A DNA stretch of 64,000 bases from an uncultured Actinomycetota bacterium (GTDB lineage Bacteria > Actinomycetota > Actinomycetes > JAHEKZ01), in the NCBI GenBank assembly GCA_963706045.1, contig CAVPLY010000007.1, positions 33,214-97,213 of the forward strand, given 5' to 3'. Every line of letters starts with the position of its first letter. Positions within the stretch are counted from its first letter, which is position 1. Positions 4,551 to 19,441 of this stretch are shown in pieces. A model generated the notes under the pieces. That model saw only the letters and a list, made by a program, of their open reading frames with translations. It did not search any database and was not told the DNA's origin. The position numbers were made by a program, and so were the translations under genes.

Positions 4551-5077
4551 GCATCCTTACCGCACTCGAGCGGTCGGCGAGGACCGGAGCCGCCGCAGGC
4601 CGTGGGCCAGGTCAAGATCGCCCAGGCCCCGCCAGAGTCCGTCCGCTGCCACCTCCAGTCACGCGTCCTGCCCGTGCCCCCTTCGTGGTGCTCGTCCTGG
4701 TGGTTCTCTCACTGGGGCTTGGGCTCCTCCTGCTCCTGAACACGCTGCTTGCCCAGGGGTCCTTCACGCTGCACTCCCTTGACGCCAAGGTCGCCGACCT
4801 GGCCGACCGCGAGCAGGCGCTACAGCAGCGCACAGCCGAACTCGCTGCGCCGCAGCGACTGGCGCGCAGCGCGGCCCAGATCGGCATGGTCCCGGCGGTC
4901 AACCCGGCGTTCCTGAGAGCGGAGGACGGCAAGATTCTCGGCGAGCCGATGCCGGCTTCGGAGCCGAGTCCCGTGGTTGGATCGGTATCCGCGACAAACG
5001 CTCAACCGCCGGCTGCGAACCAGCAGACGAACGGGTCAGGTCAGGGAAGCCAGGCTGGTGGAGGGGGGGACCGGTGA
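4547..5077 (+). CDS. ftsL: Cell division protein FtsL-like
   Basis: Single TM followed by a coiled coil and A..GMVP; lies between rsmH and ftsI. Confidence 0.85.
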   Translation: MSILTALERSARTGAAAGRGPGQDRPGPARVRPLPPPVTRPARAPFVVLVLVVLSLGLGLLLLLNTLLAQGSFTLHSLDAKVADLADREQALQQRTAELAAPQRLARSAAQIGMVPAVNPAFLRAEDGKILGEPMPASEPSPVVGSVSATNAQPPAANQQTNGSGQGSQAGGGGDR

Positions 5078-6858
5078 CGCAGGCACGTCGGCCACCCGCT
5101 GCGCCCCGCCGCCCTTTACGCCCCAGCGTGCCTCGTTCCCGACGGGTGCGAGATCCGCGTCGACGTCTGGTGACGGTGGGTGTTCTCGTCGCCATGGTGA
5201 TGTCACTCTTCGCCGGGCGACTCCTCCAGCTGCAGGGTGTCGAGGCCGCGGCCTACGCGGCCACTGCCGAAGCTGAGCGCCTTCGCACGGTCACCATCTC
5301 GGCCACTCGCGGCGCGATCACTGACGCGCACGGAATTGCTCTTGCCACAACGGTTGACGCCGTCAACGTGACCGCCGACCAGACACAGATCGCCGACCCG
5401 GTGGCGGTTGCTGCAGCGCTTGCCCCGGTTCTCGGCCAGCCGCTGAAGGCCATCCACGCCAAGCTGGTCGGAGACTCCCGTTTCGCCTACGTGGCCATGG
5501 ATATCACGCCGCGGCGCTGGGATGCGGTGGCAGCGCTCCGGCTCCCTGGCATCTACAGCGAGCCGACCTCGCGGCGGGTGTATCCGCAGGGGTCACTGGG
5601 CGCAGCACTTCTCGGGTTCGTGGGGAGCGACGGCCGCGGTCTCGATGGGCTCGAGAACAGCTGGGACCGTCAGCTGGCAGGCAGAGACGGTCAGATTACC
5701 TACGAGTCGGCAGCCGGCGGCCGACAGATTCCCAGCGCCGACTCCGAGACCGAGGAGTCGATCCCGGGTGTTGATGTCCAGCTCACGATCGACCGCGATA
5801 TCCAGTTCATCGCCGAGCGGGCGATCCGCGCAAAGGTCAATCAGTCCAACGCCGACAGCGGAACCGTGGTGGCGATGGACCCGCGGACGGGCGAGGTTCT
5901 GGCGCTGGCGACATATCCGTCCTTCGACCCTCGCGACCCGACAGCAGCCCCGGAGGCGTACCGCGGTAACCGAGCGGTCTCGGAGATCTACGAGCCCGGC
6001 AGTACGAGCAAGGTCATGACCATGGCCGCCGCGCTGGATGCCGGTGCCGTCAAGCCCACCACCAAGATCGAGGTCCCGCCGGTGCTCTATCGCGGTGGAG
6101 ATGACTTCAACGATCACACTCCGCACGGCACCCTTCATCTCACCGCTACTGGTGTGCTGGCTCAGTCGAGCAACATCGGCGCGATCCTCATCGCCGAGAA
6201 GTTGGGCGACGAAGGGCTCTACTCGTATCTGCGTAAGTTCGGCATGGGGTCGACGAGCGGATCGGACCTCCCGGGCGAGAGCGCTGGACTGTTGCCGAGA
6301 GTGGAGGACTGGGGACCAACGAACGCCGCGACCATCGCCTTCGGGCAAGGGTTCTCCCTCAACGCCCTCCAGTCCACGTCCGTGTTCGCCACCATCGCGA
6401 ACGGCGGAGTACGCGTCGAGCCCACGGTTGTAGCGGGAACGACCGGCCCCGACGGATCATTTGTTCCTGAGCCACCACCGGAGCGTCATCGTGTGGTCAG
6501 CGCCTCGACCGCCAGGACTCTGCGTCAGATGATGGAGACCGTGGTCTCTGATCAAGGAACGGCTCCACTCGCGCAGATCCCTGGCTACCGCGTCGCGGGA
6601 AAGACCGGAACCGCAGAACGCGTCGACGAGAGCTGCGGGTGCTACCGCGGCTTCACCGCCTCCTTCATCGGCTTCGCGCCGGCCGACAAACCAGCTGTCG
6701 TGGTCTCGGTCACGTTGCAGGACCCGAAGAACGGGCACTACGGAGGTCTTCTGGGTGGACCGGTGTTCAAGCGGGTGACGTCGTTCGCTCTGCAGAGCCA
6801 GCAGGTGCCGCCCACTTCCAAGTCCGCGCCATCGATGCGCCTCACGTATCGCCCCTGA
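5074..6858 (+). CDS. ftsI: Peptidoglycan D,D-transpeptidase FtsI (class B PBP)
   Basis: RG.I.D motif, YEPGSTSK (SxxK), SSN (SxN) and KTGT. Confidence 0.96.
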   Translation: MTQARRPPAAPRRPLRPSVPRSRRVRDPRRRLVTVGVLVAMVMSLFAGRLLQLQGVEAAAYAATAEAERLRTVTISATRGAITDAHGIALATTVDAVNVTADQTQIADPVAVAAALAPVLGQPLKAIHAKLVGDSRFAYVAMDITPRRWDAVAALRLPGIYSEPTSRRVYPQGSLGAALLGFVGSDGRGLDGLENSWDRQLAGRDGQITYESAAGGRQIPSADSETEESIPGVDVQLTIDRDIQFIAERAIRAKVNQSNADSGTVVAMDPRTGEVLALATYPSFDPRDPTAAPEAYRGNRAVSEIYEPGSTSKVMTMAAALDAGAVKPTTKIEVPPVLYRGGDDFNDHTPHGTLHLTATGVLAQSSNIGAILIAEKLGDEGLYSYLRKFGMGSTSGSDLPGESAGLLPRVEDWGPTNAATIAFGQGFSLNALQSTSVFATIANGGVRVEPTVVAGTTGPDGSFVPEPPPERHRVVSASTARTLRQMMETVVSDQGTAPLAQIPGYRVAGKTGTAERVDESCGCYRGFTASFIGFAPADKPAVVVSVTLQDPKNGHYGGLLGGPVFKRVTSFALQSQQVPPTSKSAPSMRLTYRP

Positions 6859-6872
6859 GTGGCCAGCCGGCT

Positions 6873-8419
6873 ATGTCACCCAGCGATGAGCGCTCACCCC
6901 GCCCCACGCCACACCCGAGGTCGCTCGCCGCGGTGTGCGCGGCCGTCGGGATCGATGCTGAACCGGTCGCGGACGTGTCCGTCACCGGCATCACTCTCAA
7001 CTCTCGTGACGTCCGTTCCGGAGACCTGTTCGTTGCGCTCACCGGTGAGCGGGTCCACGGTGCGGAGTTCGTCGCTGACGCCGTCGCTGGGGGAGCGGTT
7101 GCCGTGGCCACCGACCGTGCGGGAGTCCCATTGGTGGCCGGCCGGCTGCCCTATGTCGAGGTGCAGGACCTCCGCCACCGCACGGGCGAGCTAGCAGCAG
7201 AATATATGGCCGCCCCGCCGATGACCTGATACTGCTCGGCGTAACGGGAACCAACGGAAAGACCACCACGGCGTACCTGCTGGAGTCCGGTTTGCGGGCG
7301 GCCGGGCACCGGACCGGCTTGGTCGGCACCGTCGCGACGCTTATTGATGGGCAGGCCTTCGCCACTGTTCGCACGACGCCCGAGGCGCCTGAGCTGCATG
7401 CCCTGCTGGCCGTCATGCGCGAGCGCGGCGTGACTGCTGTGGCCATGGAGGTGTCCAGCCATGCTTTGGCGATGGCGCGCGTCGATGGCTGCGTGTTTGA
7501 CGTCTCAGGTTTCACGCAGCTCGCAGTCGACCACCTCGACTTCCATGGAAGCGAAGAGGCCTACTTCGCCGCGAAGCTGAAGCTCTTCTCCCCGGAGCGA
7601 AGTCGACGATCTGTCATCACCGTTGATGACGACGGCGGCCGAAGAATGGCGCGGGAGGCACAGGGTGAGGTCGAGACGCTCGGCGTCGAGGCGGATGCTG
7701 ACTGGCGGATCACGGGGGTGCGTGAGCGGCCCCACGGTGGCTATGACTTCAGTATCACCGCACCCGACGGGGCCACTCATACAGGCACTGTCCAACTCGT
7801 CGGTCGCTTCAACGTAGCCAATGCGGCGCTCGCCCAAGTGATGTTGATGCGTGCAGGCGTGCAGCCGGAGGTCGCAGTCGCCGGTGTCGGTCGCTGCAAG
7901 GGCGTGCCCGGTCGGATGGAGCGGGTGGGCCCGGCGGAGGTGGCGCTCGTCGTCGACTACGCCCACACCGCCGACGCGCTGGCCAGGGCTCTCGACGCGG
8001 TCCAGCCTGAGGGAGGCGGTCGCGTCATCGTCGTCTTCGGCTGCGGTGGCGACAGAGACGCGGGCAAGCGTGCTCCGATGGGTGTCGCTGCAGCCTCCCG
8101 TGCCGCAGTGGTCGTCGTCACCGACGACAACCCGCGTACGGAGTCTCCCGGTCTCATCCGGCAGGCTGTGCTCGCAGGCACGGCAGAGGTGCCTGTCGCC
8201 GAACGAGCAGAGGTTGTCGAGATGGCTGACCGCAAGGCGGCACTGGAGTGGGCCGTTCGCAAGGCATCACCGGGCGACGTCGTGCTCGTGGCGGGAAAGG
8301 GTCACGAGAGTGGCCAAGAGGTCGGGACGGTGACGACTCCGTTCGACGACCGCACCGAGCTGCTTGCCGCGTGGACACGCGTGCACGGCGACGCGGACAG
8401 GGACAGCGACAGTTCATGA
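6873..8419 (+). CDS. murE: UDP-MurNAc-Ala-Glu--diaminopimelate ligase MurE, with a 1-nt frameshift near 7201-7203
   Basis: The N-terminal domain (ITLNSRDV..GDLF) is in the 6873 frame; GVTGTNGKTT, TTPE, MEVSSH, DYAH, DDNPR and AGKGHE are in the -1 frame. Adding one A (GAA ATA TAT GGC) restores ELAAEIYGRPA. Confidence 0.93.
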
Positions 8420-9801
8420 TTCCCACCACTCTGGCTGACGTGGCAGCCGCTGCAGGCGGACGACTGGTGGGCGCCGCCGACGATTCTCTGGAAGTTGTCG
8501 GTGTTGAGTCAGACAGCCGCAAAGTGGGCCCAGGAAGTCTCTTCGTGGCGCTTGAAGGAACACGCGTCGACGGTCACGACTTCGCCGGTCAGGCTGTCGC
8601 GGCCGGTGCTCTCGCTGTGCTTGGAACACGTCCCACGGGAGTGCCGACCATCGTGGTGACCGATGTGCTCACGGCTCTTGGAGCATTGGCGCGGTTCCAT
8701 GTCGACCGGCTTACCGACACCACTGTGGTCGCCATTACCGGCTCAGTCGGCAAGACAACGGCCAAGGACCTGATTGCCGCTGTGCTCGAGGCGGATGGTC
8801 CGACCATTTCTCCACCGGGTTCGTTCAACAACGAGCTAGGTCTGCCGCTGACGGTGCTGTCAGCCACCTCTGACACGCGCTACCTCGTGCTCGAGATGGG
8901 GGCTCGTGGCCGAGGGCACATCGACTATCTCTGTTCCATCGCACCGCCGGACATCGGGGTCGAGCTCATGGTGGGGACGGCGCACCTCAGCGAGTTCGGA
9001 AGCCGCGAGGCGATCGCCGACGCGAAGGCTGAACTCGTCCGAGCACTTCCTGAGTCTGGAACTGCGATCCTCAACGCCGATGATGACCTGGTCCGCGACA
9101 TGGCGAACCAGACGTCAGCCGCGGTCGCCTGGTTCGGGCAACGGCCCGGCTCCCAGGTGAGCGCCGAGGACATAGAGTGCGACGCCTTCGATCGAGCCTC
9201 ATTCACGCTGACCACGCCGCGGGGCGAGGCCCCCGTGGCCCTGAAGCTGGTGGGAAGCCATGCGGTACCGAATGCGCTGGCGGCAGCAGCCGTCGGCTGG
9301 GCGGTGGGGATGGACACCGCTGCTATCGGCGATGCTCTGTCTGCTGCGACGCCCCGCAGCCGGTGGCGGATGGAGATCAATGAGCGAGCCGATGGGCTCG
9401 TGGTCATCAACGACGCCTACAACGCCAGCCCGGAGTCCATGCGTGCAGCTCTTAAGTCCTTGAAGACCATCGCCGGTGAGCGTCGGTCATGGGCGATCCT
9501 GGGCGAGATGCTCGAACTGGGCGAGAGCTCGATGGCCGAACACGACGCGATCGGTCGGCTGGTTGTGCGCTTAGATGTGCAACGGTTGGTCGTCGTAGGA
9601 GAGGGAGCAAGGCCGATGCATCTCGCGGCTGGCCTTGAAGGTTCGTGGGGACAGGAGTCGGTGTTCGTGCCTGATGTCGAGAGCGCCGTCGCGCTGCTAC
9701 GCGACGAGGTCAGGTCGGACGACGTCGTTCTGGTAAAGGCCTCGAGAGCTGCTGGCCTTGAAACGGTGGCGGCGCGCCTGCTTGATGGTGAGGCCCCATG
9801 A
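8416..9801 (+). CDS. murF: UDP-MurNAc-tripeptide--D-Ala-D-Ala ligase MurF
   Basis: ITGSVGKTT, SFNNELGLP, DAYNASPES, GEMLELG and KASR motifs. Confidence 0.96.
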   Translation: MIPTTLADVAAAAGGRLVGAADDSLEVVGVESDSRKVGPGSLFVALEGTRVDGHDFAGQAVAAGALAVLGTRPTGVPTIVVTDVLTALGALARFHVDRLTDTTVVAITGSVGKTTAKDLIAAVLEADGPTISPPGSFNNELGLPLTVLSATSDTRYLVLEMGARGRGHIDYLCSIAPPDIGVELMVGTAHLSEFGSREAIADAKAELVRALPESGTAILNADDDLVRDMANQTSAAVAWFGQRPGSQVSAEDIECDAFDRASFTLTTPRGEAPVALKLVGSHAVPNALAAAAVGWAVGMDTAAIGDALSAATPRSRWRMEINERADGLVVINDAYNASPESMRAALKSLKTIAGERRSWAILGEMLELGESSMAEHDAIGRLVVRLDVQRLVVVGEGARPMHLAAGLEGSWGQESVFVPDVESAVALLRDEVRSDDVVLVKASRAAGLETVAARLLDGEAP

Positions 9802-10880
9802 AGCTCGTTCTGGTAGCTGTGGTCGTCAGCCTGATCATCGGCTTCGTGGCAACCCCGCTCTGGGCCAACTGGTTGCGCGCCCGAGGGTACGCACAGTCAA
9901 TCCGTGATGCGGAAGAGCTCGGCTACGCGGTGCCGGACCATGCTGGAAAGAGGGGCACGCCCTCGATGGGCGGAGTCGTCATCGTGCTGGGCACGGTCAT
10001 CAGCTACATCGTCGCGCACTTGGTGGCAGGCAGTGGCCCAAGTGCCTCCGCGATGCTGGTCTTCTTCTTGATGGTGGGATTGGCGTCAGTCGGATTCGCC
10101 GATGACTACATCAAGATCTTTCGCCGCCGATCCACGGGACTGCGGGTCAAGACCAAACTGTTCGGGCAGGCGATCGTAGCCGTCCTTTTCGCTTTGCTAG
10201 CGCTGCAGTTCCCCAACGCCGACGGGCTGACCCCCGCTACTCAGTACGTCTCGTTCGTTCGTGACACGGCCATTTTCCTGCCGATCGGGGTCTATCTGCT
10301 CTGGGTCTGGTTCATGGTTGCCGCGACGTCGAACGCCGTGAATCTCACCGACGGGCTCGACGGCCTTGCCACGGGGGCTGCCTCCATGGTGTTCGGTGCC
10401 TATGTGACCGTCGGCCTATGGCAGTACAACCAACGCTGCTCAGACTTCGTTCTGCCGAACTGCTACGAGGTGCGAAACCCTCTCGACATTGCCGTCGTGG
10501 CTGCGGGAGTGATGGGCTCGTGCTTCGGCTTTCTCTGGTGGAACACCTCTCCTGCTCGCATCTTCATGGGTGATACCGGTTCTTTGGCGCTCGGAGGGGC
10601 GATGGCGGGAATTGCCATCACCACGCAGACTGAGTTGCTTCTTCCTGTGATGGCTGGGCTCTTCGTCGTGATCACCGCTTCGGTGATCATTCAGATCGCG
10701 TCCTTCAAGACGACGGGACGTCGGGTCTTCTTGATGTCGCCCCTGCAGCATCACTTTGAGCTGAAGGGATGGCCCGAAGTCCAGATCGTCACGAGGTTCT
10801 GGATCATCTCAGGGCTCTTCACCGGAGCAGCCTTCGTCCTCTTCTACACCGAATGGCTCGGTGGGGGTGGCATCGGGTGA
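9798..10880 (+). CDS. mraY: Phospho-MurNAc-pentapeptide transferase MraY
   Basis: K.GTPSMGG, NAVNLTDGLDGLA, FMGDTGS and HHFEL; multi-TM. Confidence 0.97.
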   Translation: MKLVLVAVVVSLIIGFVATPLWANWLRARGYAQSIRDAEELGYAVPDHAGKRGTPSMGGVVIVLGTVISYIVAHLVAGSGPSASAMLVFFLMVGLASVGFADDYIKIFRRRSTGLRVKTKLFGQAIVAVLFALLALQFPNADGLTPATQYVSFVRDTAIFLPIGVYLLWVWFMVAATSNAVNLTDGLDGLATGAASMVFGAYVTVGLWQYNQRCSDFVLPNCYEVRNPLDIAVVAAGVMGSCFGFLWWNTSPARIFMGDTGSLALGGAMAGIAITTQTELLLPVMAGLFVVITASVIIQIASFKTTGRRVFLMSPLQHHFELKGWPEVQIVTRFWIISGLFTGAAFVLFYTEWLGGGGIG

Positions 10881-12331
10881 CCACCTCGTCAGATGTCACC
10901 CAGTGGCTGAAGACGGCGGATCGGAACGCCGACTGGTCGGGGGTGCTGGCATGTGTCGCCGGCCTGGGGGCGAGTGGGTTCGCTGCTGCAGATGCGCTGT
11001 TGCGCGTCGGGGCTTCGGTGCAGGTCGTCGAGTCGGCGCCGCTCAGTTCGACGGGGGTTATCTCTGAGCGGGCCCAGATCCTTCAGACGCTGGGGGCCGA
11101 GGTGCGCATGGGGGTGCCGGGCGACGCGCAGCTCACAGCTGACCTGCTCGTGCCCTCACCGGGAATCCCGCCGCACCATCGGTGGATAGCCAAAGCTCGT
11201 GCCAAGGCGATCTGGAGTGGCGAGCAACTGGCGTGGAACCTCCGGCCCCCCGGTGTTCCCTGGCTGACGGTCACAGGGACCAACGGCAAGACGACAACGG
11301 TGCAGCTGTTGGCCGACATGTTGAAGGCCGCAGGCCATCGTGCTCTGGCGGTCGGAAACATCGGGGTGCCTGTGGTCGAGGCGGTGTTCGCCGATCCGCA
11401 ACCAGACGTCCTCGCGGTCGAGCTCTCGAGCTTCCAGCTGCACTTCACGCACTCGGTATCCGCGCACTCATCAGCGCTGCTGAACATCGCCGAGGATCAC
11501 CTCGACTGGCACGGTTCACTTGACGGATACATCGCTGACAAGGCCCGCGTCTACGACCGCACGCAGCGGACGATCGTGTACAACCACGATGACCCCCTCA
11601 CCGAACAGCTCGCCGAGAATGCCGAAGTCGTCGAGGGGTGTCGAGCGGTGGGGGTCACCCTCGGGCTTCCTGCTCGCTCGATGTTCGGAGTAGTGGATGG
11701 CGTGCTGGTCGACCGAGCCTTCATTGCGGACCGAGCCAGTCGGGCCGTCGAGATCTGCTCGGCCGGCGACCTGGCGCTGCGTGGAAGCCACAACGTCCAC
11801 AACGTGCTCGTCGCTGCCGCACTGGCCCGTTCATTCGGTGCGTCGATCTCTTCGATCCGCGACGCAGCAATTGGCTTCGCCATGGATGAACATCGTGGGC
11901 AGGTGATCGACGTCGTGCGCGACGTCGCCTTCGTCGACAACTCAAAGGCCACGAATGTGCACGCAGCGGAGGTGGCGTTGGGTGCGGCGTCTGGGCCGGT
12001 GGTGTGGATTGCAGGTGGTCTCGCCAAGGGTGGCTTGTTCGACGAACTGGTGCGGGCGTACCGCGAGCGCCTCCGCGCAGTTGTGCTGCTGGGGGCCGAT
12101 CGTGGTGTGATCGCCGAGGCACTCGGGCGACACGCCCCCGAGGTCCCGGTGTTCGAGGTTCCCGACGGGGACACTGAGCCCATGAATCATGCTGTTCGCG
12201 CCGCGGCGGCGGTGGCGCAGCCGCACGACACAGTGCTGCTGGCGCCCGCCTGCGCTTCGATGGACCTCTTCCGCGACTACCGCGCCAGAGGTCGAGCATT
12301 CAGCTCGGCCGTGGCCCAGCTTCGCCGCTGA
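10877..12331 (+). CDS. murD: UDP-MurNAc-Ala--D-glutamate ligase MurD
   Basis: VTGTNGKTT, ELSSFQL, SKATN and LAPACASMD; GTGA overlap with mraY. Confidence 0.96.
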   Translation: MTTSSDVTQWLKTADRNADWSGVLACVAGLGASGFAAADALLRVGASVQVVESAPLSSTGVISERAQILQTLGAEVRMGVPGDAQLTADLLVPSPGIPPHHRWIAKARAKAIWSGEQLAWNLRPPGVPWLTVTGTNGKTTTVQLLADMLKAAGHRALAVGNIGVPVVEAVFADPQPDVLAVELSSFQLHFTHSVSAHSSALLNIAEDHLDWHGSLDGYIADKARVYDRTQRTIVYNHDDPLTEQLAENAEVVEGCRAVGVTLGLPARSMFGVVDGVLVDRAFIADRASRAVEICSAGDLALRGSHNVHNVLVAAALARSFGASISSIRDAAIGFAMDEHRGQVIDVVRDVAFVDNSKATNVHAAEVALGAASGPVVWIAGGLAKGGLFDELVRAYRERLRAVVLLGADRGVIAEALGRHAPEVPVFEVPDGDTEPMNHAVRAAAAVAQPHDTVLLAPACASMDLFRDYRARGRAFSSAVAQLRR

Positions 12332-12341
12332 CGGATCTCGC

Positions 12342-13580
12342 ATGACGCTCACTTCCCCTCGCACCTCCTCAACCCACCGGGCGGGGATCGGCGCCCCTTT
12401 GCGCGCCGCCCTGGCCAAGCCCCTCGCCCCGTACTACCTCGTGCTGGGCAGCACCATCTTGCTCACCGCACTCGGGTTGGTCATGGTCCTGTCGGCCTCC
12501 AGCGTCGAGTCGTACGCAGCCAGCGGCTCGTCGTGGGCAATCGCCCAGCGCCAGGCCATGTGGGTAGTGATCGGAATCCCCGCACTGCTTGTCGCCAGTC
12601 GGCTGCCCACCGTGTGGTTTCGCCGCTTGGCTGTCCCCGCGCTAGTGGTGTCCCTGGTGCTGCTCGTGCTCGTGCTGGTGCCCGGCATCGGGGTGAACGT
12701 CAATGGAAACCAGAACTGGATCGACGTGGGCGGATCGATCCGGATTCAACCAGCTGAGGCGGCCAAGTACGCGCTGGTGCTGTGGGGTGCAGATCTTCTC
12801 ACCCGCAAGCGCAAGCTGTTGCACGAGAACAAGCATCTGCTGATCCCCCTGCTTCCCGTCGCTGCCATCGTGATCGGCCTGGTGCTTCTCGGTGGCGACT
12901 TGGGCACGTCATTGATCCTGATGGCCATCGTGGCCGGCCTGCTGTTCGTGGCCGGCGCACCCTTCCGGGTCTTCGTCGCTCTCGCCGCCCCGGCACTGGC
13001 GGTCATCTTGTTCATGACCTTCCAGCGCAGCGCACGCCTCTCCCGCCTGCAGTCCTTCCTCGACCCCTTCGCCGACTACGAAGGTGCTGGGTGGCAGGCG
13101 GCCCACAGCCTGTTTGCCCTGGCCTCGGGCGGTTGGTGGGGGGTGGGCCTCGGCGCCAGTCGCGAGAAGTGGGGCAACCTTCCTGAGGCACACACCGACT
13201 TCATCTTTGCCATCATTGGCGAAGAACTGGGTCTGGTGGGCACCCTCACCGTTCTGCTGCTCTTCGGTGCGCTCGTGCTCGGAGCGCTCCGCATTGCGCT
13301 GGCCACCGACGATCTCTTCGTGCGCTTCGCTTCCGGCGGCATCGTTGTCTGGATCGGGGTGCAGATGATCATCAACGTCGGCGGTGTCCTCAGCGTCCTT
13401 CCGATCACCGGTGTCCCACTGCCGCTCGTCTCCTACGGCGGATCGGCGCTCGTGGCCACCATGTTTGCGCTCGGCATGCTCCTGTCGTTCGCCCGAAACC
13501 TTCCCGGTGCGCGACGAGCCCTCCGTCAGCGACGCACCGCGAGGTGGCGTCCGAGGTTCTCCAAGGCACGCGCTCGGTGA
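12342..13580 (+). CDS. ftsW: SEDS peptidoglycan polymerase FtsW
   Basis: MVLSAS, IQPAE, LPEAHTDFIFAIIGEELG and PLVSYGGS motifs. Confidence 0.96.
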   Translation: MTLTSPRTSSTHRAGIGAPLRAALAKPLAPYYLVLGSTILLTALGLVMVLSASSVESYAASGSSWAIAQRQAMWVVIGIPALLVASRLPTVWFRRLAVPALVVSLVLLVLVLVPGIGVNVNGNQNWIDVGGSIRIQPAEAAKYALVLWGADLLTRKRKLLHENKHLLIPLLPVAAIVIGLVLLGGDLGTSLILMAIVAGLLFVAGAPFRVFVALAAPALAVILFMTFQRSARLSRLQSFLDPFADYEGAGWQAAHSLFALASGGWWGVGLGASREKWGNLPEAHTDFIFAIIGEELGLVGTLTVLLLFGALVLGALRIALATDDLFVRFASGGIVVWIGVQMIINVGGVLSVLPITGVPLPLVSYGGSALVATMFALGMLLSFARNLPGARRALRQRRTARWRPRFSKARAR

Positions 13581-14704
13581 GCGCCGGGAGGCCCACGGCG
13601 ACGACGGTGCGCCCCCTTCGGCTGCTGCTGGCAGGCGGTGGCACCGCCGGTCACGTCGAGCCAGCACTTGCGTTGGCAGATGCGGTGATCAGGCGGCGTC
13701 CGGACACCGTCGTTGGCGCACTCGGAACTGCTTCGGGTCTTGAGACGACGTTGGTGCCCGCTCGTGGATTCGACCTGCACCTCATTCCGAAGATCACCAT
13801 GCCACGCTCTGAGCCACGCCGTTGGCTTTCGATCCCTGGCGGTGTGTGGTCGGCAGTTCGTGCCACAGCGGCCGTGATCTCGGAGCAGAAACCTGATGTG
13901 GTGGTGGGTTTCGGGGGTTACGTGTCGTTGCCGGCCTATCTGGCGGCCCGGCGGGCCGGCGTGCCCTTCGTGGTGCACGAAGCAAATGCTCGACCGGGCG
14001 TGGCGAACCGAATTGGTGCACGGTTCACCCCGTATGTGGTGGTGAGCGTTCCGTCCACCGTCAGTTCGCTGCCCCATGCCCAGCTGATCGGTATCCCGCT
14101 GCGTAGAAGCATCACCACCCTTGATCGCTCCTCACTGAAGACCAGCGCCAGAAAGACATTCGGGCTCGAGCCGGATCGACCGACGGTGCTGGTCTTCGGT
14201 GGTTCGCAGGGGGCCAGAACCATCAACGCGGCGATGCAAGGCGCCGCTCGAAGCTTGTTGGACGCCGGTATCCAGGTGCTGCATGCAGCTGGCCCCCAGA
14301 ACACCGTCACGATCGAACGTCATGAATCAGACCCTCCGTACGTGGTGGTGCCCTACCTGGAGCGCATGGACCTTGCGTACGCCGCGGCCGACCTGGTCGT
14401 TGGCCGCTCCGGGGCAATGACCTGCGCAGAGGTCGCAGCGGTCGGACTGCCTGCGGTGTTCGTGCCCTACCCCCACAGCAACGGTGAACAGGCCGTCAAT
14501 GCTCAACCCCTCGTCGATGCGGGTGCTGGCGTCATGATCGTCGACGCCGAATTCACCGCGTCAGTGGTCGAGAGCGTTGTCCGCGACCTGGTGCTCGACG
14601 CCGATCGCCTGCGCTTGATGGGTGAGGCGGCTGTCCATCTGGGCGCAGGCGAGGCCGACGAACGACTGACCGACCTGGTGCTCGAGGCGGCTGATCGTTC
14701 ATGA
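13577..14704 (+). CDS. murG: Lipid II GlcNAc transferase MurG
   Basis: GGGTAGH, GFGGY, HEAN, GGSQGA and RSGA motifs. Confidence 0.97.
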   Translation: MSAGRPTATTVRPLRLLLAGGGTAGHVEPALALADAVIRRRPDTVVGALGTASGLETTLVPARGFDLHLIPKITMPRSEPRRWLSIPGGVWSAVRATAAVISEQKPDVVVGFGGYVSLPAYLAARRAGVPFVVHEANARPGVANRIGARFTPYVVVSVPSTVSSLPHAQLIGIPLRRSITTLDRSSLKTSARKTFGLEPDRPTVLVFGGSQGARTINAAMQGAARSLLDAGIQVLHAAGPQNTVTIERHESDPPYVVVPYLERMDLAYAAADLVVGRSGAMTCAEVAAVGLPAVFVPYPHSNGEQAVNAQPLVDAGAGVMIVDAEFTASVVESVVRDLVLDADRLRLMGEAAVHLGAGEADERLTDLVLEAADRS

Positions 14705-16128
14705 CGACGCGTGTCAGCGAACACACCGGCTCTCCTCTTGACGAGCTCGGCAGAGTCCATCTCATCGGCGTCGCAGGTGCTGGGATGTCGGCCCTCACGC
14801 GCATGCTCTGCGCCCGTGGCGTTCGGGTGACCGGCAGCGAGCTGCGAGACTCGCGCATCGTCGCCTCCCTGCGTGCGGTCGGCGCGGTCATTCACTTCGG
14901 ACAGACCCCAGACTCGCTACCCGCTGCCGACACCGTCATCGTCTCCACGGCGATCCGCGACAACAACCCCGAGCTCGTCGCAGCCCGCGAGCGAGGTCTG
15001 CGCATTCTGCATCGCGCCGAGGCGCTGGCCTACTGCATGCGGGGCTATCGCTGCGTCGTGGTGGCCGGAACCCATGGCAAGACCACGACGACATCGATGA
15101 CGGCTGTGGCCCTGCAGCACTGTGGCGCCGATCCGTCGTACTACATCGGTGCTCAGCTGAACGAGACCGGCACGAACGCCCACGCTGGCACTGGCCCAGA
15201 CTTCGTGGCCGAGTCCGACGAGAGCGATGGCTCATTCCTGGTGCTTGAGCCACAGATCGCCGTGATCACCAACGTCGAAGGCGACCACCTCGACTACTGG
15301 GGTGACGCCGAGGGGGTCGAGGCCGGATTCCGGCAGTTCGTGACAAAAGTTCCTCGGGACGGCGTCGTCATCGCATGTGCTGACGACGCCGGAGCGGCCC
15401 GCGTCGCTGCCTTCGCCCGACAAGAGGGCAGACGGGTGGTGACATATGGCGTCAGCGATCAGGCAGATGTCCGCGTCACCGACGTGGCTCTGGACGCCAC
15501 CGGCGCCTGGTTCCAGCCGGTGGTGAATGGCCGCCGACTCCCTGACGTCTCATTGAAGATCGTTGGGCTGCACAACGTGCTGAACGCGACAGCAGCCTTG
15601 GCGGTTGCGCTGGAAGTGGGAGTCGGGGTGTCCGACGCCGTCGAGGGCCTAGGGCTCTACAGCGGGGCGCGCCGACGCTTTGAGTTCAAGGGCGAGGGTT
15701 ATGGCGTGCGGGTCTACGACGACTACGCCCACCACCACACCGAGCTGCGAGCCACGCTGACTGCGGCCCGCCAGATCGCCGACGGTGGTCGCATCGTCGT
15801 CGCCTTCCAGCCGCTCCGCTTCACCCGCACAGCCGAGTTTCACCGCGAGCTGGGGGAGGCGCTGGGGCTGGCCGACGACGTGGTGGTCATGGAGGTCTAC
15901 GGCTCCAACGAAGAGCCGATCCCCGGCGCCACCGGAGCTCTGGTCGCCGCCGGAGTGCCTCTCGCGCCTGAGCACGTGGCTTTCGAGCCGTCGTTCTCTG
16001 CCGTTCCCCAGTGGCTGGTCGAGCGGGTCGAGCCAGGTGATCTGATTCTCACCCTCGGAGATGGGATCGTGACGACGCTTGGCCCCGAAATCGTCGAGCT
16101 CCTGCGTCACCGCCAGGAGCAGGCATGA
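14701..16128 (+). CDS. murC: UDP-MurNAc--amino acid ligase MurC (atypical substrate pocket)
   Basis: IG..GAGMS, AGTHGKTTT, ESDESD, TN..DHLD and DDYAHH; lies between murG and ftsQ. Confidence 0.95.
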   Translation: MTTRVSEHTGSPLDELGRVHLIGVAGAGMSALTRMLCARGVRVTGSELRDSRIVASLRAVGAVIHFGQTPDSLPAADTVIVSTAIRDNNPELVAARERGLRILHRAEALAYCMRGYRCVVVAGTHGKTTTTSMTAVALQHCGADPSYYIGAQLNETGTNAHAGTGPDFVAESDESDGSFLVLEPQIAVITNVEGDHLDYWGDAEGVEAGFRQFVTKVPRDGVVIACADDAGAARVAAFARQEGRRVVTYGVSDQADVRVTDVALDATGAWFQPVVNGRRLPDVSLKIVGLHNVLNATAALAVALEVGVGVSDAVEGLGLYSGARRRFEFKGEGYGVRVYDDYAHHHTELRATLTAARQIADGGRIVVAFQPLRFTRTAEFHRELGEALGLADDVVVMEVYGSNEEPIPGATGALVAAGVPLAPEHVAFEPSFSAVPQWLVERVEPGDLILTLGDGIVTTLGPEIVELLRHRQEQA

Positions 16129-16838
16129 ACCCGGCCGGGTGGCTTCGACGACCGTGGACGTGGGGCGTTCTGACGGTTCTCGCGTGCGCCCTGATGTTCT
16201 CGTTCCTTCGCTTTGCGCCCTTCTTCCGCGTGCAGCACGTCGATGTCCAGGGCAACAGCCAGGTATCGGCCGAAGAAGTCGTGGCTGCGGCCAACGTCTC
16301 TGAGAACGGGGCCCTGATGACGGTGCCGTTGGACGAGATTGCCTCTCGGGTCGAGACCTTGGACGCGGTCGCGGGTGCCCGCGTCACACGCGACTGGCCC
16401 AACCGCGTTCAGATTGTCGTGCGTGAACGACGACCGGTCGGGTTCATCGCGCGCGGCACCGGCGTCGTGCTCGTCGGGTCCGACGGGTCGCTCTACCGAG
16501 AGCAAGAGGAACGGCCGCAGAACCTTCCAGAGCTGCCTGATGCGGCGGCCGCTGTCGGCGACTCGTACCCAGCATCCGCCGACGACTCCGCACGAGCGGC
16601 CTATGACGTTGCTGTTGAGCTGCCGGCTGCGCTGCGTCGCGCTGTGAGCACCATCGACGCGCCAGGCCCGCGGACCATCCGGCTGGTGCTTGCCGACGGA
16701 GTGGTTGTCGAGTGGGGAGCGCCAGGTGACGCAGATCAGAAAGCTCTTGCGGTCAAGGCGCTACGCGACCGCCGGGGGTGGGGCACGGCCTTCACCGTTG
16801 TCGACGTGACTGCTCCAGAAGCACCTGCCCTCAGCTGA
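16125..16838 (+). CDS. ftsQ: Cell division protein FtsQ/DivIB
   Basis: TM plus POTRA-like region (V.V.GN, V.RDWP..V.I.V.ER), WG, C-terminal DV.AP; immediately upstream of ftsZ. Confidence 0.9.
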   Translation: MNPAGWLRRPWTWGVLTVLACALMFSFLRFAPFFRVQHVDVQGNSQVSAEEVVAAANVSENGALMTVPLDEIASRVETLDAVAGARVTRDWPNRVQIVVRERRPVGFIARGTGVVLVGSDGSLYREQEERPQNLPELPDAAAAVGDSYPASADDSARAAYDVAVELPAALRRAVSTIDAPGPRTIRLVLADGVVVEWGAPGDADQKALAVKALRDRRGWGTAFTVVDVTAPEAPALS

Positions 16839-16875
16839 TGGGGGACCGCTGGGGCCGATCGTGCTGCGACGTGCT

Positions 16876-16970
16876 CGACACGCCGAGTAGTTGACGATCC
16901 TGACCCCCTCCCGTACGTTGCTCCGCGAACCTGGAGTTGACATAACGTTTGATGTCTACTAAAGGGTGAG
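16876..16970 (+). promoter_or_regulatory. ftsZ promoter region (GACAC WhiA-like site; TTGACA-N17-TAAAGG)
   Basis: CGACACGCC at 16876-16884; TTGACA at 16937-16942 with a -10-like TAAAGG at 16960-16965. Confidence 0.55.
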
Positions 16971-17020
16971 ACTTCGATTGTCCGCCGAGCGGACGCTACG
17001 AGAGAGGCGTCAAACAGACC

Positions 17021-18193
17021 ATGGCTGCACCGCAGAACTACCTCGCCGTCATCAAGGTTGTGGGCATCGGAGGCGGTGGCGTCAATGCCATCAACCGGAT
17101 GATCGAGGTCGGCCTCAAGGGCGTTGAGTTCATCGCGATCAACACCGATGCCCAGGCACTGTTGATGAGCGATGCCGACGTCAAGCTCGACATCGGGCGT
17201 GAGCTCACCCGCGGCCTCGGCGCAGGAGCCGACCCCGAGGTGGGCCGTCGTGCAGCCGAAGACCACCGCACCGAGATCGAAGAGGTGCTCAAGGGCGCCG
17301 ACATGGTTTTCGTCACCGCTGGCGAGGGCGGTGGCACGGGAACCGGCGGGGCTCCGGTCGTTGCTGAGGTCGCTCGCGCCATCGGAGCGCTCACCATCGG
17401 CGTCGTCACCCGGCCGTTCGGCTTCGAAGGGCGCCGCCGCGCCGTGCAGGCCGATACCGGTATCGAGGAGCTGCGCAGCGAGGTCGACACCCTCATCGTC
17501 ATTCCTAATGACCGGCTGCTGTCGATCAGCGACCGTGCCGTCAGCGTGCTCGATGCCTTCAAGTCGGCCGATCACGTGCTGATGTCGGGAGTCCAGGGGA
17601 TCACTGACCTGATCACGACTCCTGGTCTGATCAACCTCGACTTCGCCGACGTCAAGTCGGTCATGCAGGGTGCAGGGACGGCACTGATGGGCATCGGCAA
17701 TGCCCGCGGTGACAATCGGTCGATCGCCGCGGCGGAGACCGCGATCTCGAGCCCCCTGCTCGAAGCATCCATCGAGGGCGCCCGCGGTGTCCTGTTGTCA
17801 GTGTCCGGAGGATCCGATCTCGGGCTCTTCGAGATCAACGAGGCTGCCCGCATGGTGGCTGAGTCGGCCCATCCCGAGGCCAACATCATCTTCGGGGCCG
17901 TCATCGATGACGCACTTGGAGACGAGGTACGGGTCACTGTTATCGCGGCTGGCTTCGACAGCGGTCAGACGGGTAAGGCGCGGACGGCGGGGCGTGCAGT
18001 CGAAGAGGTACCCGTGCCGGAGCCGCTGATGAAGTCGGCGGATGCCGATGACGCTGGCACGACCACACCGCCGGCGACGTCTGACCAGGGTGATGACCAG
18101 TACATCGAGCTGCCGGAGCGCAAGGCGCCTCGCACCATCGTCTTCGACGACTCGGTCGGCGATGAACTGGATGTACCCGACTTTCTGAAGTAG
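17021..18193 (+). CDS. ftsZ: Cell division protein FtsZ
   Basis: [28 protein letters not shown]-terminal ELDVPDFLK. Confidence 0.99.
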
Positions 18194-18906
18194 TGGTGGT
18201 CGCCGAAACGCGCAGACGCGAGATCGCCCTGGGGCTGGAGGCAGCCCGTCGCCGCGTCGCTGTCGCCGAAGTGGAGGCAGGACGCGACCCTGGTTCGGTC
18301 GACCTCGTCGTGGTCACCAAGACACATCCAGCCGCTGAGGTCGAGGTGCTCGCCGACCTCGGAGTGGTGCATGTCGGTGAGAACCGCGATCAGGAGGCAG
18401 CGCCGAAGGCTCAGCTCCTCGAGGCGCGTCACCTGGTCTGGCATTTCATCGGTCAGCTCCAGACCAACAAGGCGCGCTCGGTCGTCGAGTACGCCGATGT
18501 GGTCGAGTCGGTCGACCGACCGAAGCTCGTGGGGGCGCTGAGCCGGGCCGCCGTTTCGATTCGCCCCCCGGACCGACCGCTGACCTGCCTGGTGCAGGTC
18601 TGCCTCGACGAACAACCCGGACGCGGGGGAGCGCTTCCCCAGGACGTCCCTTCGATCGCCGACCAGATCGTGGCCGCTCCAGGCCTCGAGCTCGGTGGCG
18701 TCATGGCCGTGGCCCCCCTCGATGCCGATCCAGATGACGCCTTTGCACGACTCGCCGTGGTTGCCCAGGGGGTCGCGGCCACTCATCCGCAGGCCACGAC
18801 CGTGTCGGCAGGAATGAGCAGTGACCTCGAATCCGCGATTCGGCACGGCGCGACACAAGTGCGACTCGGCAGCGTGGTGCTCGGGTCCAGGCCTCCTGTC
18901 AGGTAG
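18193..18906 (+). CDS. yggS: PLP homeostasis protein YggS
   Basis: [29 protein letters not shown] and VRLGS motifs. Confidence 0.95.
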
Positions 18907-18970
18907 CGTTCGACCAGCGGATCGACCTCGTAGAGGCGACCGCACCACGACAATCGAAGGGGTCGGACGT

Positions 18971-19441
18971 ATGGCCGGCGGAATGCGCAAGATGGCGGTC
19001 TATCTCGGACTGGTCGAGAACGAGGACCAGTACGACGAGTACGACAGCCCTGACCGAGAGTACGACGAACGTGGGCGGCAGCTGCACGCCGTGCGCGACG
19101 ACGAGCCGGCCCCGAGTCGTCCTGCTTCTGCGGCTCCTCGGGCGACGGCGCCCGCCGGGTCACCGTCCAGGATCAGCACCCTGCACCCGCGCACCTACAA
19201 TGACGCACGGGCGATTGGTGAGGCGTTCCGTAGTGGCACACCGGTCATCATGAATCTCACGGAGATGGACGACGGCGATGCCAAGCGCATCGTCGACTTC
19301 GGTGCTGGGGTGGTGTTCGGCCTCCACGGCACGATCGAGCGTGTCACGCAGAAGGTCTTCCTGCTCTCGCCGGCCAATGTGGTGGTGACCGCCGAAGAGA
19401 AAGCGCAGCTCGCTGAAGGCGGATTCTTCAACCAGAGCTGA
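18971..19441 (+). CDS. sepF: Cell division protein SepF
   Basis: [36 protein letters not shown] and FFNQS. Confidence 0.96.

Follow-up and report, generated by a model that had tools for sequence, protein, structure and literature searches.

A remodelled MurC amino-acid pocket and the loss of pgeF in an uncultured actinomycete clade point to a probably non-alanine first stem-peptide residue

The DNA examined here is a stretch of 64,000 nucleotides (the window) from an uncultured Actinomycetota bacterium, and its subject is murC, the gene of the ligase that puts the first amino acid of the stem peptide on UDP-N-acetylmuramate (UDP-MurNAc). The gene lies at the distal end of the division and cell-wall (dcw) cluster, on the forward strand, and is followed by an ftsQ-like gene, ftsZ and yggS. 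In the MurC reaction, ATP activates the carboxyl group of UDP-MurNAc, which the incoming amino acid then attacks through its amino group; to our knowledge, only Ala, Gly and Ser occur at position 1 of the stem peptide. A sequence-only reading of the window had noticed three unusual MurC segments and no pgeF between ftsZ and yggS, and had proposed that the organism loads Gly, Ser or another residue at position 1 and has dropped the proofreader, PgeF, which removes Gly and L-Ser misloaded by MurC. The latter function is in print: according to excerpts of two papers, PgeF hydrolyses UDP-MurNAc-Ser and UDP-MurNAc-Gly and spares the alanine product, and species whose position 1 is Ser or Gly have no pgeF (PMC12280929, PMC8844914). 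The analysis described below supports the proposal as likely, through the fixation of the MurC changes in a whole clade, the deletion of pgeF on the same branch and the co-occurrence of the two traits across the class.

MurC and the ftsZ-yggS junction

The window protein is MurC by descent, fold and catalytic residues. Its whole-protein score lies above the TIGR01082 cut-off (Table 1), and this profile gave a single match over cut-off in the genome, with no second murC or mpl; a fifth Mur-like match, considered as an extra MurC or mpl, turned out to be FolC. An AlphaFold2 model built from a 99-sequence alignment (predicted local distance difference test, pLDDT, 96.3; predicted template-modelling score, pTM, 0.94) has the three-domain Mur ligase fold and superimposes on 1p3d_A with template-modelling (TM) scores of 0.91/0.93 and a root-mean-square deviation of 1.7 Å, and on 7bva with a score of 0.90. 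The enzyme looks active, because all 14 invariant columns of the 99-sequence alignment are kept in it, including Lys127, Glu171, His196, Arg325/326 and Arg376 (residue numbers are those of the window MurC unless marked Hi, for Haemophilus influenzae). The catalytic residues Lys127, Glu171, Glu174, His196 and Arg325/326 are invariant and present; we take them to be the P-loop Lys, the metal-binding Glu and His residues (Glu171, Glu174 and His196) and the Arg-Arg pair. Membership of the strictly L-alanine-specific kind of MurC, on the other hand, is in doubt.

The doubt comes from three segments. The sequence-only reading had DYAHHHTE for the usual HHPTE and FQPLRFTRT for the usual FQPHR/L, and the translation agrees at both places; the third, LTLGDG for the usual GAG, had been put at about 16051-16071 and lies exactly at 16048-16065. 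When aligned to H. influenzae MurC (1gqq/1p3d, in which the chain index exceeds the published residue number by one), Hi Tyr346, His348, Pro350, His376, Arg377 and Arg380 correspond to Tyr342, His344, His346, Leu372, Arg373 and Arg376 of the window protein. All of these Hi residues other than Pro350 are believed, from the product complex, to bind the incoming amino acid, as stated in an excerpt of PMC3060825. Four of the five are kept in the window protein (Tyr342, His344, Arg373 and Arg376), and the fifth, Hi His376, is replaced by Leu372, so that the reported amino-acid-binding set is not complete. The earlier claim that all three segments form the L-alanine pocket thus holds for the DYxHH and FQPH residues, which are covered by the excerpt of PMC3060825; for the GAG segment, our literature search found no paper confirming its alanine as part of the MurC pocket. 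The comparative data presented below do, however, point to the GAG alanine as the recurrent site of change. In the AlphaFold2 model, each altered segment follows a strand of the C-terminal domain (336-341, 365-370 and 448-453) and runs into a helix. Ligands in alpha/beta domains usually bind at such strand-to-helix loops, and the three altered loops would, from topology alone, be at the ligand-binding location.

These replacements are rare. Among the 150 best representative clusters (50% identity), position 346 is Pro in 146 and His in 1, position 372 is His in 139 and Leu in 4, and position 454 is Ala in 141 and Asp in none, so the residues found in the window at 346, 372 and 454 appear far from chance variation.

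The junction downstream is equally distinctive. The ftsZ stop codon TAG (18191-18193) and the GTG start of yggS (18193-18195) share base 18193, just as had been noted, which leaves no space for another gene. A second GTG, at 18196, is an equally possible yggS start. A search of the window's own assembly (69.4% complete) with the PF02578 profile (PgeF/YfiH) gave no match; in a control search, the same profile had matches in 8 of 14 named genomes, Corynebacterium glutamicum among them.

Distribution across the family and the class

In our genome collection, the family of this organism comprises 20 genomes in five genera (g1-g5), of which g5 consists of G017 only. P346H and H372L (motifs HHH and FQPLR) occur in all 18 genomes of g1-g4 with a MurC, and A454D (GDG) in all 17 that are readable at the third motif; G013 gave no MurC match, and the murC of G011 is split across two contigs. 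MurC identity inside the g1-g4 set, referred to below as the clade, goes down to 68%. Residue 456 is variable (I, M or E in the g1-g4 genomes; I, V, M, P or E in protein clusters), whereas 346, 372 and 454 are invariant in the genomes. The same holds in a wider set: among the best 120 protein matches, all 55 clusters with at least 63% identity that cover the sites carry HHH, FQPLR and GDG (an odd partial match, P0206, was left out of this count). Those that also extend to the N-terminal sites share a linked block of Ala31, Glu47, Gln68, Tyr320, His346, Leu372 and Asp454, the sole exceptions being residue 47 of P0178 (Ala) and of P0195 (Asp). All full-length matches with at most 61% identity among these 120 have the whole ancestral set, and no intermediates between the derived and ancestral sets were found among them. 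Three changes of the N-terminal nucleotide-binding domain, G31A (14791-14793), D47E (14839-14841) and H68Q (14902-14904), are fixed along with those in the pocket, and D47E is also seen in three of the four Micromonospora enzymes.

The ancestral state is preserved in the sister genome. The MurC of G017, 60% identical to the clade enzyme, reads HHP, FQPHR and GAGD, and the gene order there is murC-ftsQ-ftsZ-pgeF-yggS. In a MurC tree of 86 rows, computed with the three motif stretches removed and with 15 near-duplicate rows and one truncated row left out, G017 is sister to the clade with support of 98 in the Shimodaira-Hasegawa-like approximate likelihood-ratio test (SH-aLRT), and the clade is a single group (100) whose stem measures 0.35 changes per column.

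Of the 20 family genomes, 18 gave no pgeF match, and 11 of these 18 have a completeness of at least 90%. In every clade locus that holds both genes (13/13), ftsZ adjoins yggS, and therefore no pgeF remnant is left. The two family matches are in G017 and in G002. The latter, on a 4.3-kb contig (L118, G002:C231:1-4321), was set aside as probable contamination, because the yggS on that contig is about 52-54% identical to that of the window and the other G002 yggS, on a different contig, is 80% identical. The MurC of G002 is 93% identical to the window's, and L118 carries pgeF-yggS and a gene like that at 18821-19441 of the window. The genome-wide search thus yielded no credible pgeF in g1-g4. Of the 21 pgeF-positive relatives, 17 have pgeF on the strand and contig of murC, 2.1-6.8 kb downstream of it, and four have it on another contig, which bears out the earlier remark that it often sits between ftsZ and yggS in actinomycetes. 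The pgeF deletion and the MurC changes fall on the same branch.

The co-occurrence of the two traits extends beyond the family. In a class sample of 401 genomes, nearly all of them at least 90% complete, pgeF was found in 361; the 40 without it are distributed over this family (12, counting the window's genome), family f47 (19), family f51 (4), genus g127 of f35 (2) and 3 singletons. MurC was obtained from all 28 pgeF-less genomes outside the family. Family f47 represents the Microbacteriaceae, since the named Aurantimicrobium, Leucobacter and Canibacter enzymes nest inside it in the MurC tree; its MurCs have [H/Q]QPH[L/T], GCG and HHP (19/19 for each). The f51 enzymes, 98% identical to NCBI-named Micromonospora proteins, have DEYAYHPTS, FQPYR and GAPP (4/4), and GAPP recurs in all of the 120 best f51 MurC matches (P0277-P0396), including those of Plantactinospora, Phytohabitans and Solwaraspora. 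The g127 enzymes share 85% identity with 'uncultured Friedmanniella' proteins and 78-83% with proteins that carry the label Propionibacteriaceae. They have GCG (2/2), and all of their 120 best matches have GCGD; G053, a pgeF-positive genome of the same family, keeps GAG. Every other lineage-level loss of pgeF in the class sample is thus accompanied by an altered MurC pocket. Among named genomes, pgeF was found in none of five Microbacteriaceae, and 61 genomes of the Aurantimicrobium minutum family gave one weak match. HHH alone was rejected as a glycine marker: the unbiased f47 sample is uniformly HHP, and the Microbacteriaceae sequences with HHH had come from a search pattern that itself contained HHH. 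One Micromonospora-like MurC match, L124 (G193:C1:6333923-6335302), contains an in-frame TGA.

The pgeF-positive controls consisted of 20 outgroups and one genome from each of 30 further families, and His372 and Ala454 are kept in 49 of these 50. The exception, G030 (L111, G030:C1:2012643-2014022), has FQSQLYSRT and GSG, and its pgeF match covers profile positions 1-200 in a 514-aa open frame; this lineage may be in transition, or its pgeF may be fused or decaying. By tree rows, 49 are pgeF-positive with a canonical pocket, 32 are pgeF-less with an altered one, 1 is pgeF-positive with an altered one and none is pgeF-less with a canonical one, these rows being kin that amount to four events. 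This tally omits four genomes (G025, G054, G096 and G213) because their murC contig ends before the usual pgeF site. The window's genome itself has both marks of the Gly/Ser-type kind, namely no pgeF and a pocket that differs from the canonical His372/GAG, the second mark being derived from the present data and not from a published criterion. Six of the genomes are unpublished (G025 of the contig-end four, G033 and G041 of the controls, and G046, G052 and G254, which enter the class tallies only), and their removal changes no conclusion.

Column counts show an acceleration that is specific to MurC: when the same 16 outgroup genomes are used for both proteins, clade-fixed changes affect 12 of 160 conserved MurC columns versus 1 of 125 in MurD, taken as the control (Fisher p = 0.008). 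That single MurD change is at residue 153 (11225-11227), Glu in the 16 outgroups and Gln (13) or Arg (2) in the clade; MurD co-adaptation was therefore dropped, as E153Q/R alone is fixed and offers no independent sign of a changed substrate. Over 128 columns conserved in at least 90% of the 50 pgeF-positive MurCs, those MurCs themselves deviate at a median of 3 (range 0-16), the clade at 12-17 (24 in a truncated row), Microbacteriaceae at 16-25, g127 at 17-18, Micromonospora at 19-21 and the four contig-end genomes at 3-9. The stem branches of the four pgeF-less groups measure 0.35, 0.78, 0.57 and 1.01 changes per column. The site at which change recurs is 454: Asp in the clade, Cys in two lineages and, in the fourth, a neighbouring Gly-Asp replaced by Pro-Pro.

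The features of the locus are collected in Table 1. The window contig is contig 7 of a 2.05-Mb, 31-contig assembly, and the public records closest to it are metagenome-assembled genomes that bear the labels uncultured Actinomycetota, Actinomycetes or 'Candidatus Nanopelagicales'. The murE gene is read in two frames: frame 1 ends '...ELAAEYMAAPPMT*' at 7229, and in frame 2 '...IYGRPADDLILLGVTGTNGKTTT' is read from about 7200. Both frames would be accounted for by an indel of one base close to the ATATAT run at ~7205, probably an error of assembly, because murE is an essential gene. The true start of murD probably lies later than the open frame indicates, as the profile match begins at residue 62. 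On the 3' side of yggS, the open frame 18821-19441 has no NCBIfam match, yet it is conserved beside yggS in G017 and on L118; by its position we presume it to be sepF.

Table 1. Genes of the dcw cluster and MurC segments in the window
Feature	Position	Strand	Remarks
PBP gene	5074-6858	+	First gene in cluster order
murE, two frames (6639-7229 and 7082-8419)	6639-8419	+	NF001124 profile positions 18-108 (frame 1) and 98-494 (frame 2)
murF	8248-9801	+	dcw cluster
mraY	9798-10880	+	dcw cluster
murD, control gene	10769-12331	+	TIGR01087, 348.8 bits
ftsW	12189-13580	+	dcw cluster
murG	13544-14704	+	dcw cluster
murC, UDP-N-acetylmuramate:amino-acid ligase, 475 aa	14701-16128	+	TIGR01082, 439.3 bits (cut-off 335.1)
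DYAHHHTE (within DDYAHHHTE, residues 340-348)	15721-15744	+	Tyr342 and His344 kept; Pro to His at 346, codon 15736-15738
FQPLRFTRT (residues 369-377)	15805-15831	+	Leu372 codon 15814-15816; Arg373 and Arg376 kept
LTLGDGIV (residues 450-457)	16048-16071	+	Asp454 (16060-16062) for Ala of GAG; Ile456 (16066-16068) for Asp after GAG
ftsQ-like gene	16125-16838	+	NF004039, E 1.5e-22, 80 bits, under curated cut-off 353; position between murC and ftsZ fits
ftsZ	17021-18193	+	TIGR00065, 416.8 bits (cut-off 295.2)
Junction TAGTG	18191-18195	+	Site where pgeF would be expected; sequence reading
yggS (PLP-binding protein family)	18193-18906	+	TIGR00044, 140.2 bits (cut-off 106.25)

A non-alanine first residue and its alternatives

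The comparative evidence makes it probable that the clade MurC loads a non-alanine residue through a new pocket solution. The branch concerned is that of the ancestor of g1-g4, on which pgeF was cleanly deleted between ftsZ and yggS and MurC gained its linked substitutions, four of which (P346H, H372L, A454D and D456I) are in the three C-terminal-domain loops. H372L affects a member of the reported set of five amino-acid-binding residues. MurC would thereby drop its preference for L-alanine and put a smaller or polar residue on UDP-MurNAc, most likely glycine and less likely L-serine. The larger side chain at 454 could fill the space of the alanine methyl group and so favour glycine, as Cys would do in Microbacteriaceae; alternatively, Asp454 could accept a hydrogen bond from the hydroxyl group of serine. 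pgeF would have had to be lost, because PgeF hydrolyses both UDP-MurNAc-Gly and UDP-MurNAc-Ser. Two swap-like pairs, with His moving from 372 to 346 and Asp from 456 to 454, suggest a pocket that has been rearranged rather than degraded. Taken residue by residue, glycine has a little less than an even chance, serine is rather unlikely, and something else would be a long shot. In the last case, similarly improbable, the Asp454/Leu372/His346 pocket would be selective for an amino acid that has never been reported at position 1 (not Ala, Gly or Ser); the Asp454 carboxylate could then pair with a hydroxyl group or a positive charge of the side chain of the substrate. The N-terminal block of G31A, D47E and H68Q could reflect a further change in the binding of the nucleotide substrate.

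The rest of the stem is probably ordinary (D-Glu, diaminopimelate and D-Ala-D-Ala), because MurD is almost unchanged and MurE keeps DNPR; this motif had been reported earlier and is present at 8126-8137, though murE is split over two frames. One FemAB-family (PF02388) gene per genome was found in all five genomes searched, namely G000 (G000:C2:166956-168029), G010, G006, G016 and the sister G017. It hints at an interpeptide bridge, so that the wall may be A3-gamma-like rather than directly cross-linked.

Several observations weigh against a non-alanine residue or limit its support. With four pgeF-less lineages, the number of events is too small for a statistical test. Of the ten clade-changed columns, six (47, 320, 346, 372, 454 and 456) are changed in at least one other pgeF-less lineage versus 3.4 expected (p = 0.07), an overlap that is weakly above chance and suggestive only. 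G025 and the three singletons of the class sample, G054, G096 and G213, have no pgeF match yet a canonical MurC, with the murC contig ending 0.6-2.2 kb downstream. The glycine-type lineages use Cys or a Tyr/Pro set, not the Asp/Leu of the clade, and the clade is known from metagenome-assembled genomes alone. That Ala454 lines the methyl pocket or touches the substrate side chain is what we infer, as are the exclusion of alanine by a larger side chain at 454 and the identity of the loaded residue. Micromonosporaceae (type A1-gamma-prime) and Friedmanniella with Microlunatus (A3-gamma-prime) count as chemotypes with glycine at position 1, although our literature search for Micromonospora and Friedmanniella gave only wall compositions. 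Finally, according to an excerpt of PMC8844914, the MurCs of M. leprae and M. tuberculosis are alike in vitro though their walls differ, and an excerpt of PMC12280929 mentions some Lactobacillales that have no pgeF and still have L-Ala, so that the loss of pgeF is not sufficient for a non-alanine residue.

The same Lactobacillales, with an L-Ala wall and no pgeF, speak for a different explanation, in which MurC still loads L-alanine with a higher intrinsic fidelity, proofreading became dispensable and pgeF was then lost. The His to Leu change would make the pocket more hydrophobic and could disfavour serine, and the basis on which MurC tells Ala, Ser and Gly apart is not understood, as stated in an excerpt of the 2025 PNAS paper that defined PgeF as an editor (PMC12280929). 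Yet Ala454 is replaced in two lineages, one of which (Microbacterium) has been shown in print to load glycine, and we would expect a bulkier residue at 454 to crowd a methyl group rather than favour it. Moreover, the other lineage-level pgeF losses in the class sample are all in taxa that count as glycine-type. We regard this higher-fidelity enzyme as unlikely, if still deserving of attention.

Drift or compensatory noise in MurC, with pgeF lost for another reason such as its nucleoside-phosphorylase side activity or genome streamlining, would agree with the small clade genomes (2.1-3.2 Mb), with the conservative nature of 4 of the 10 fixed changes (G31A, D47E, F320Y and changes at 33) and with the deviation of some pgeF-positive MurCs at up to 16 conserved columns. 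It is harder to reconcile with hits in near-invariant columns that are fixed down to 63% identity with no intermediates, with a median pgeF-positive MurC that deviates at 3 of 128 columns versus 12-17 in the clade, or with the near-constancy of MurD (1/125 versus 12/160 in MurC) in the same genomes, and we consider it distinctly unlikely. An artefact of metagenome assembly or binning might be suspected from the 69% completeness of the window's assembly and from the murE frameshift on the same contig. The residues and the ftsZ-yggS junction, however, recur in independent assemblies, including contigs of 0.4-2.9 Mb and genomes that are 97-100% complete, which makes such an origin next to negligible.

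The pairing of pgeF loss with a Gly/Ser-type wall has already been published. Our literature search, with the supplementary files of PMC12280929 outside its scope, found no paper that links the loss of pgeF to particular MurC pocket residues, nor one on this clade. With this clade, one class has four independent pgeF-less lineages, and the clade differs from the other three in its pocket residues. Together, the four lineages give candidate specificity positions: 454 first, then 372, 344/346 and 455/456. They also offer a sequence-only predictor of the wall chemotype for uncultured actinomycetes, namely the absence of pgeF combined with a non-canonical 372/454. Should the residue prove to be neither Gly nor Ser, known peptidoglycan chemistry would be extended.

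Comparison with known systems

The canonical L-Ala enzymes of H. influenzae (1p3d), E. coli (2f00) and M. bovis (7bva) share with the window protein the fold (TM 0.89-0.93), the three domains, the catalytic residues and the place in the dcw cluster. They differ in the pocket, where Hi His376 is replaced by Leu, Pro350 by His and GAGD by GDGI, and the window enzyme is without its PgeF partner.

Micromonosporaceae resemble the clade in the absence of pgeF from the four sampled genomes (MurC L123-L126), in the replacement of His372 and Asp456 and in D47E, which three of the four have. Unlike the clade, they have Tyr344, Tyr372 and GAPP, and Ala454 itself is kept. According to excerpts of PMC5754459 and PMC3364876, their wall contains meso-diaminopimelate and glycine. 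In the Friedmanniella-like g127, pgeF is likewise absent (2/2), Ala454 is replaced and F320Y is common to both; here Cys takes the place of Ala454, and His372 is kept.

In Microbacteriaceae, as in the clade, pgeF has been lost at the family level, the GAG alanine has been replaced and the MurC stem branch is long. Their MurC is 39-45% identical to that of the window, an identity low enough to make its change an independent event. The solution is also different: Cys replaces Ala454, His372, Asp456 and usually Pro346 are kept, and Phe369 has become His or Gln. Their wall belongs to the B type; the window's MurE, in contrast, is still of the DNPR type. An excerpt of PMC12280929 describes Gly/Ser-type MurCs in the pgeF-less genomes of Microbacterium oryzae and E. 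larvae. Of these two, M. oryzae represents the Microbacteriaceae: it has glycine in its wall and a MurC that, in E. coli, loads mostly glycine.

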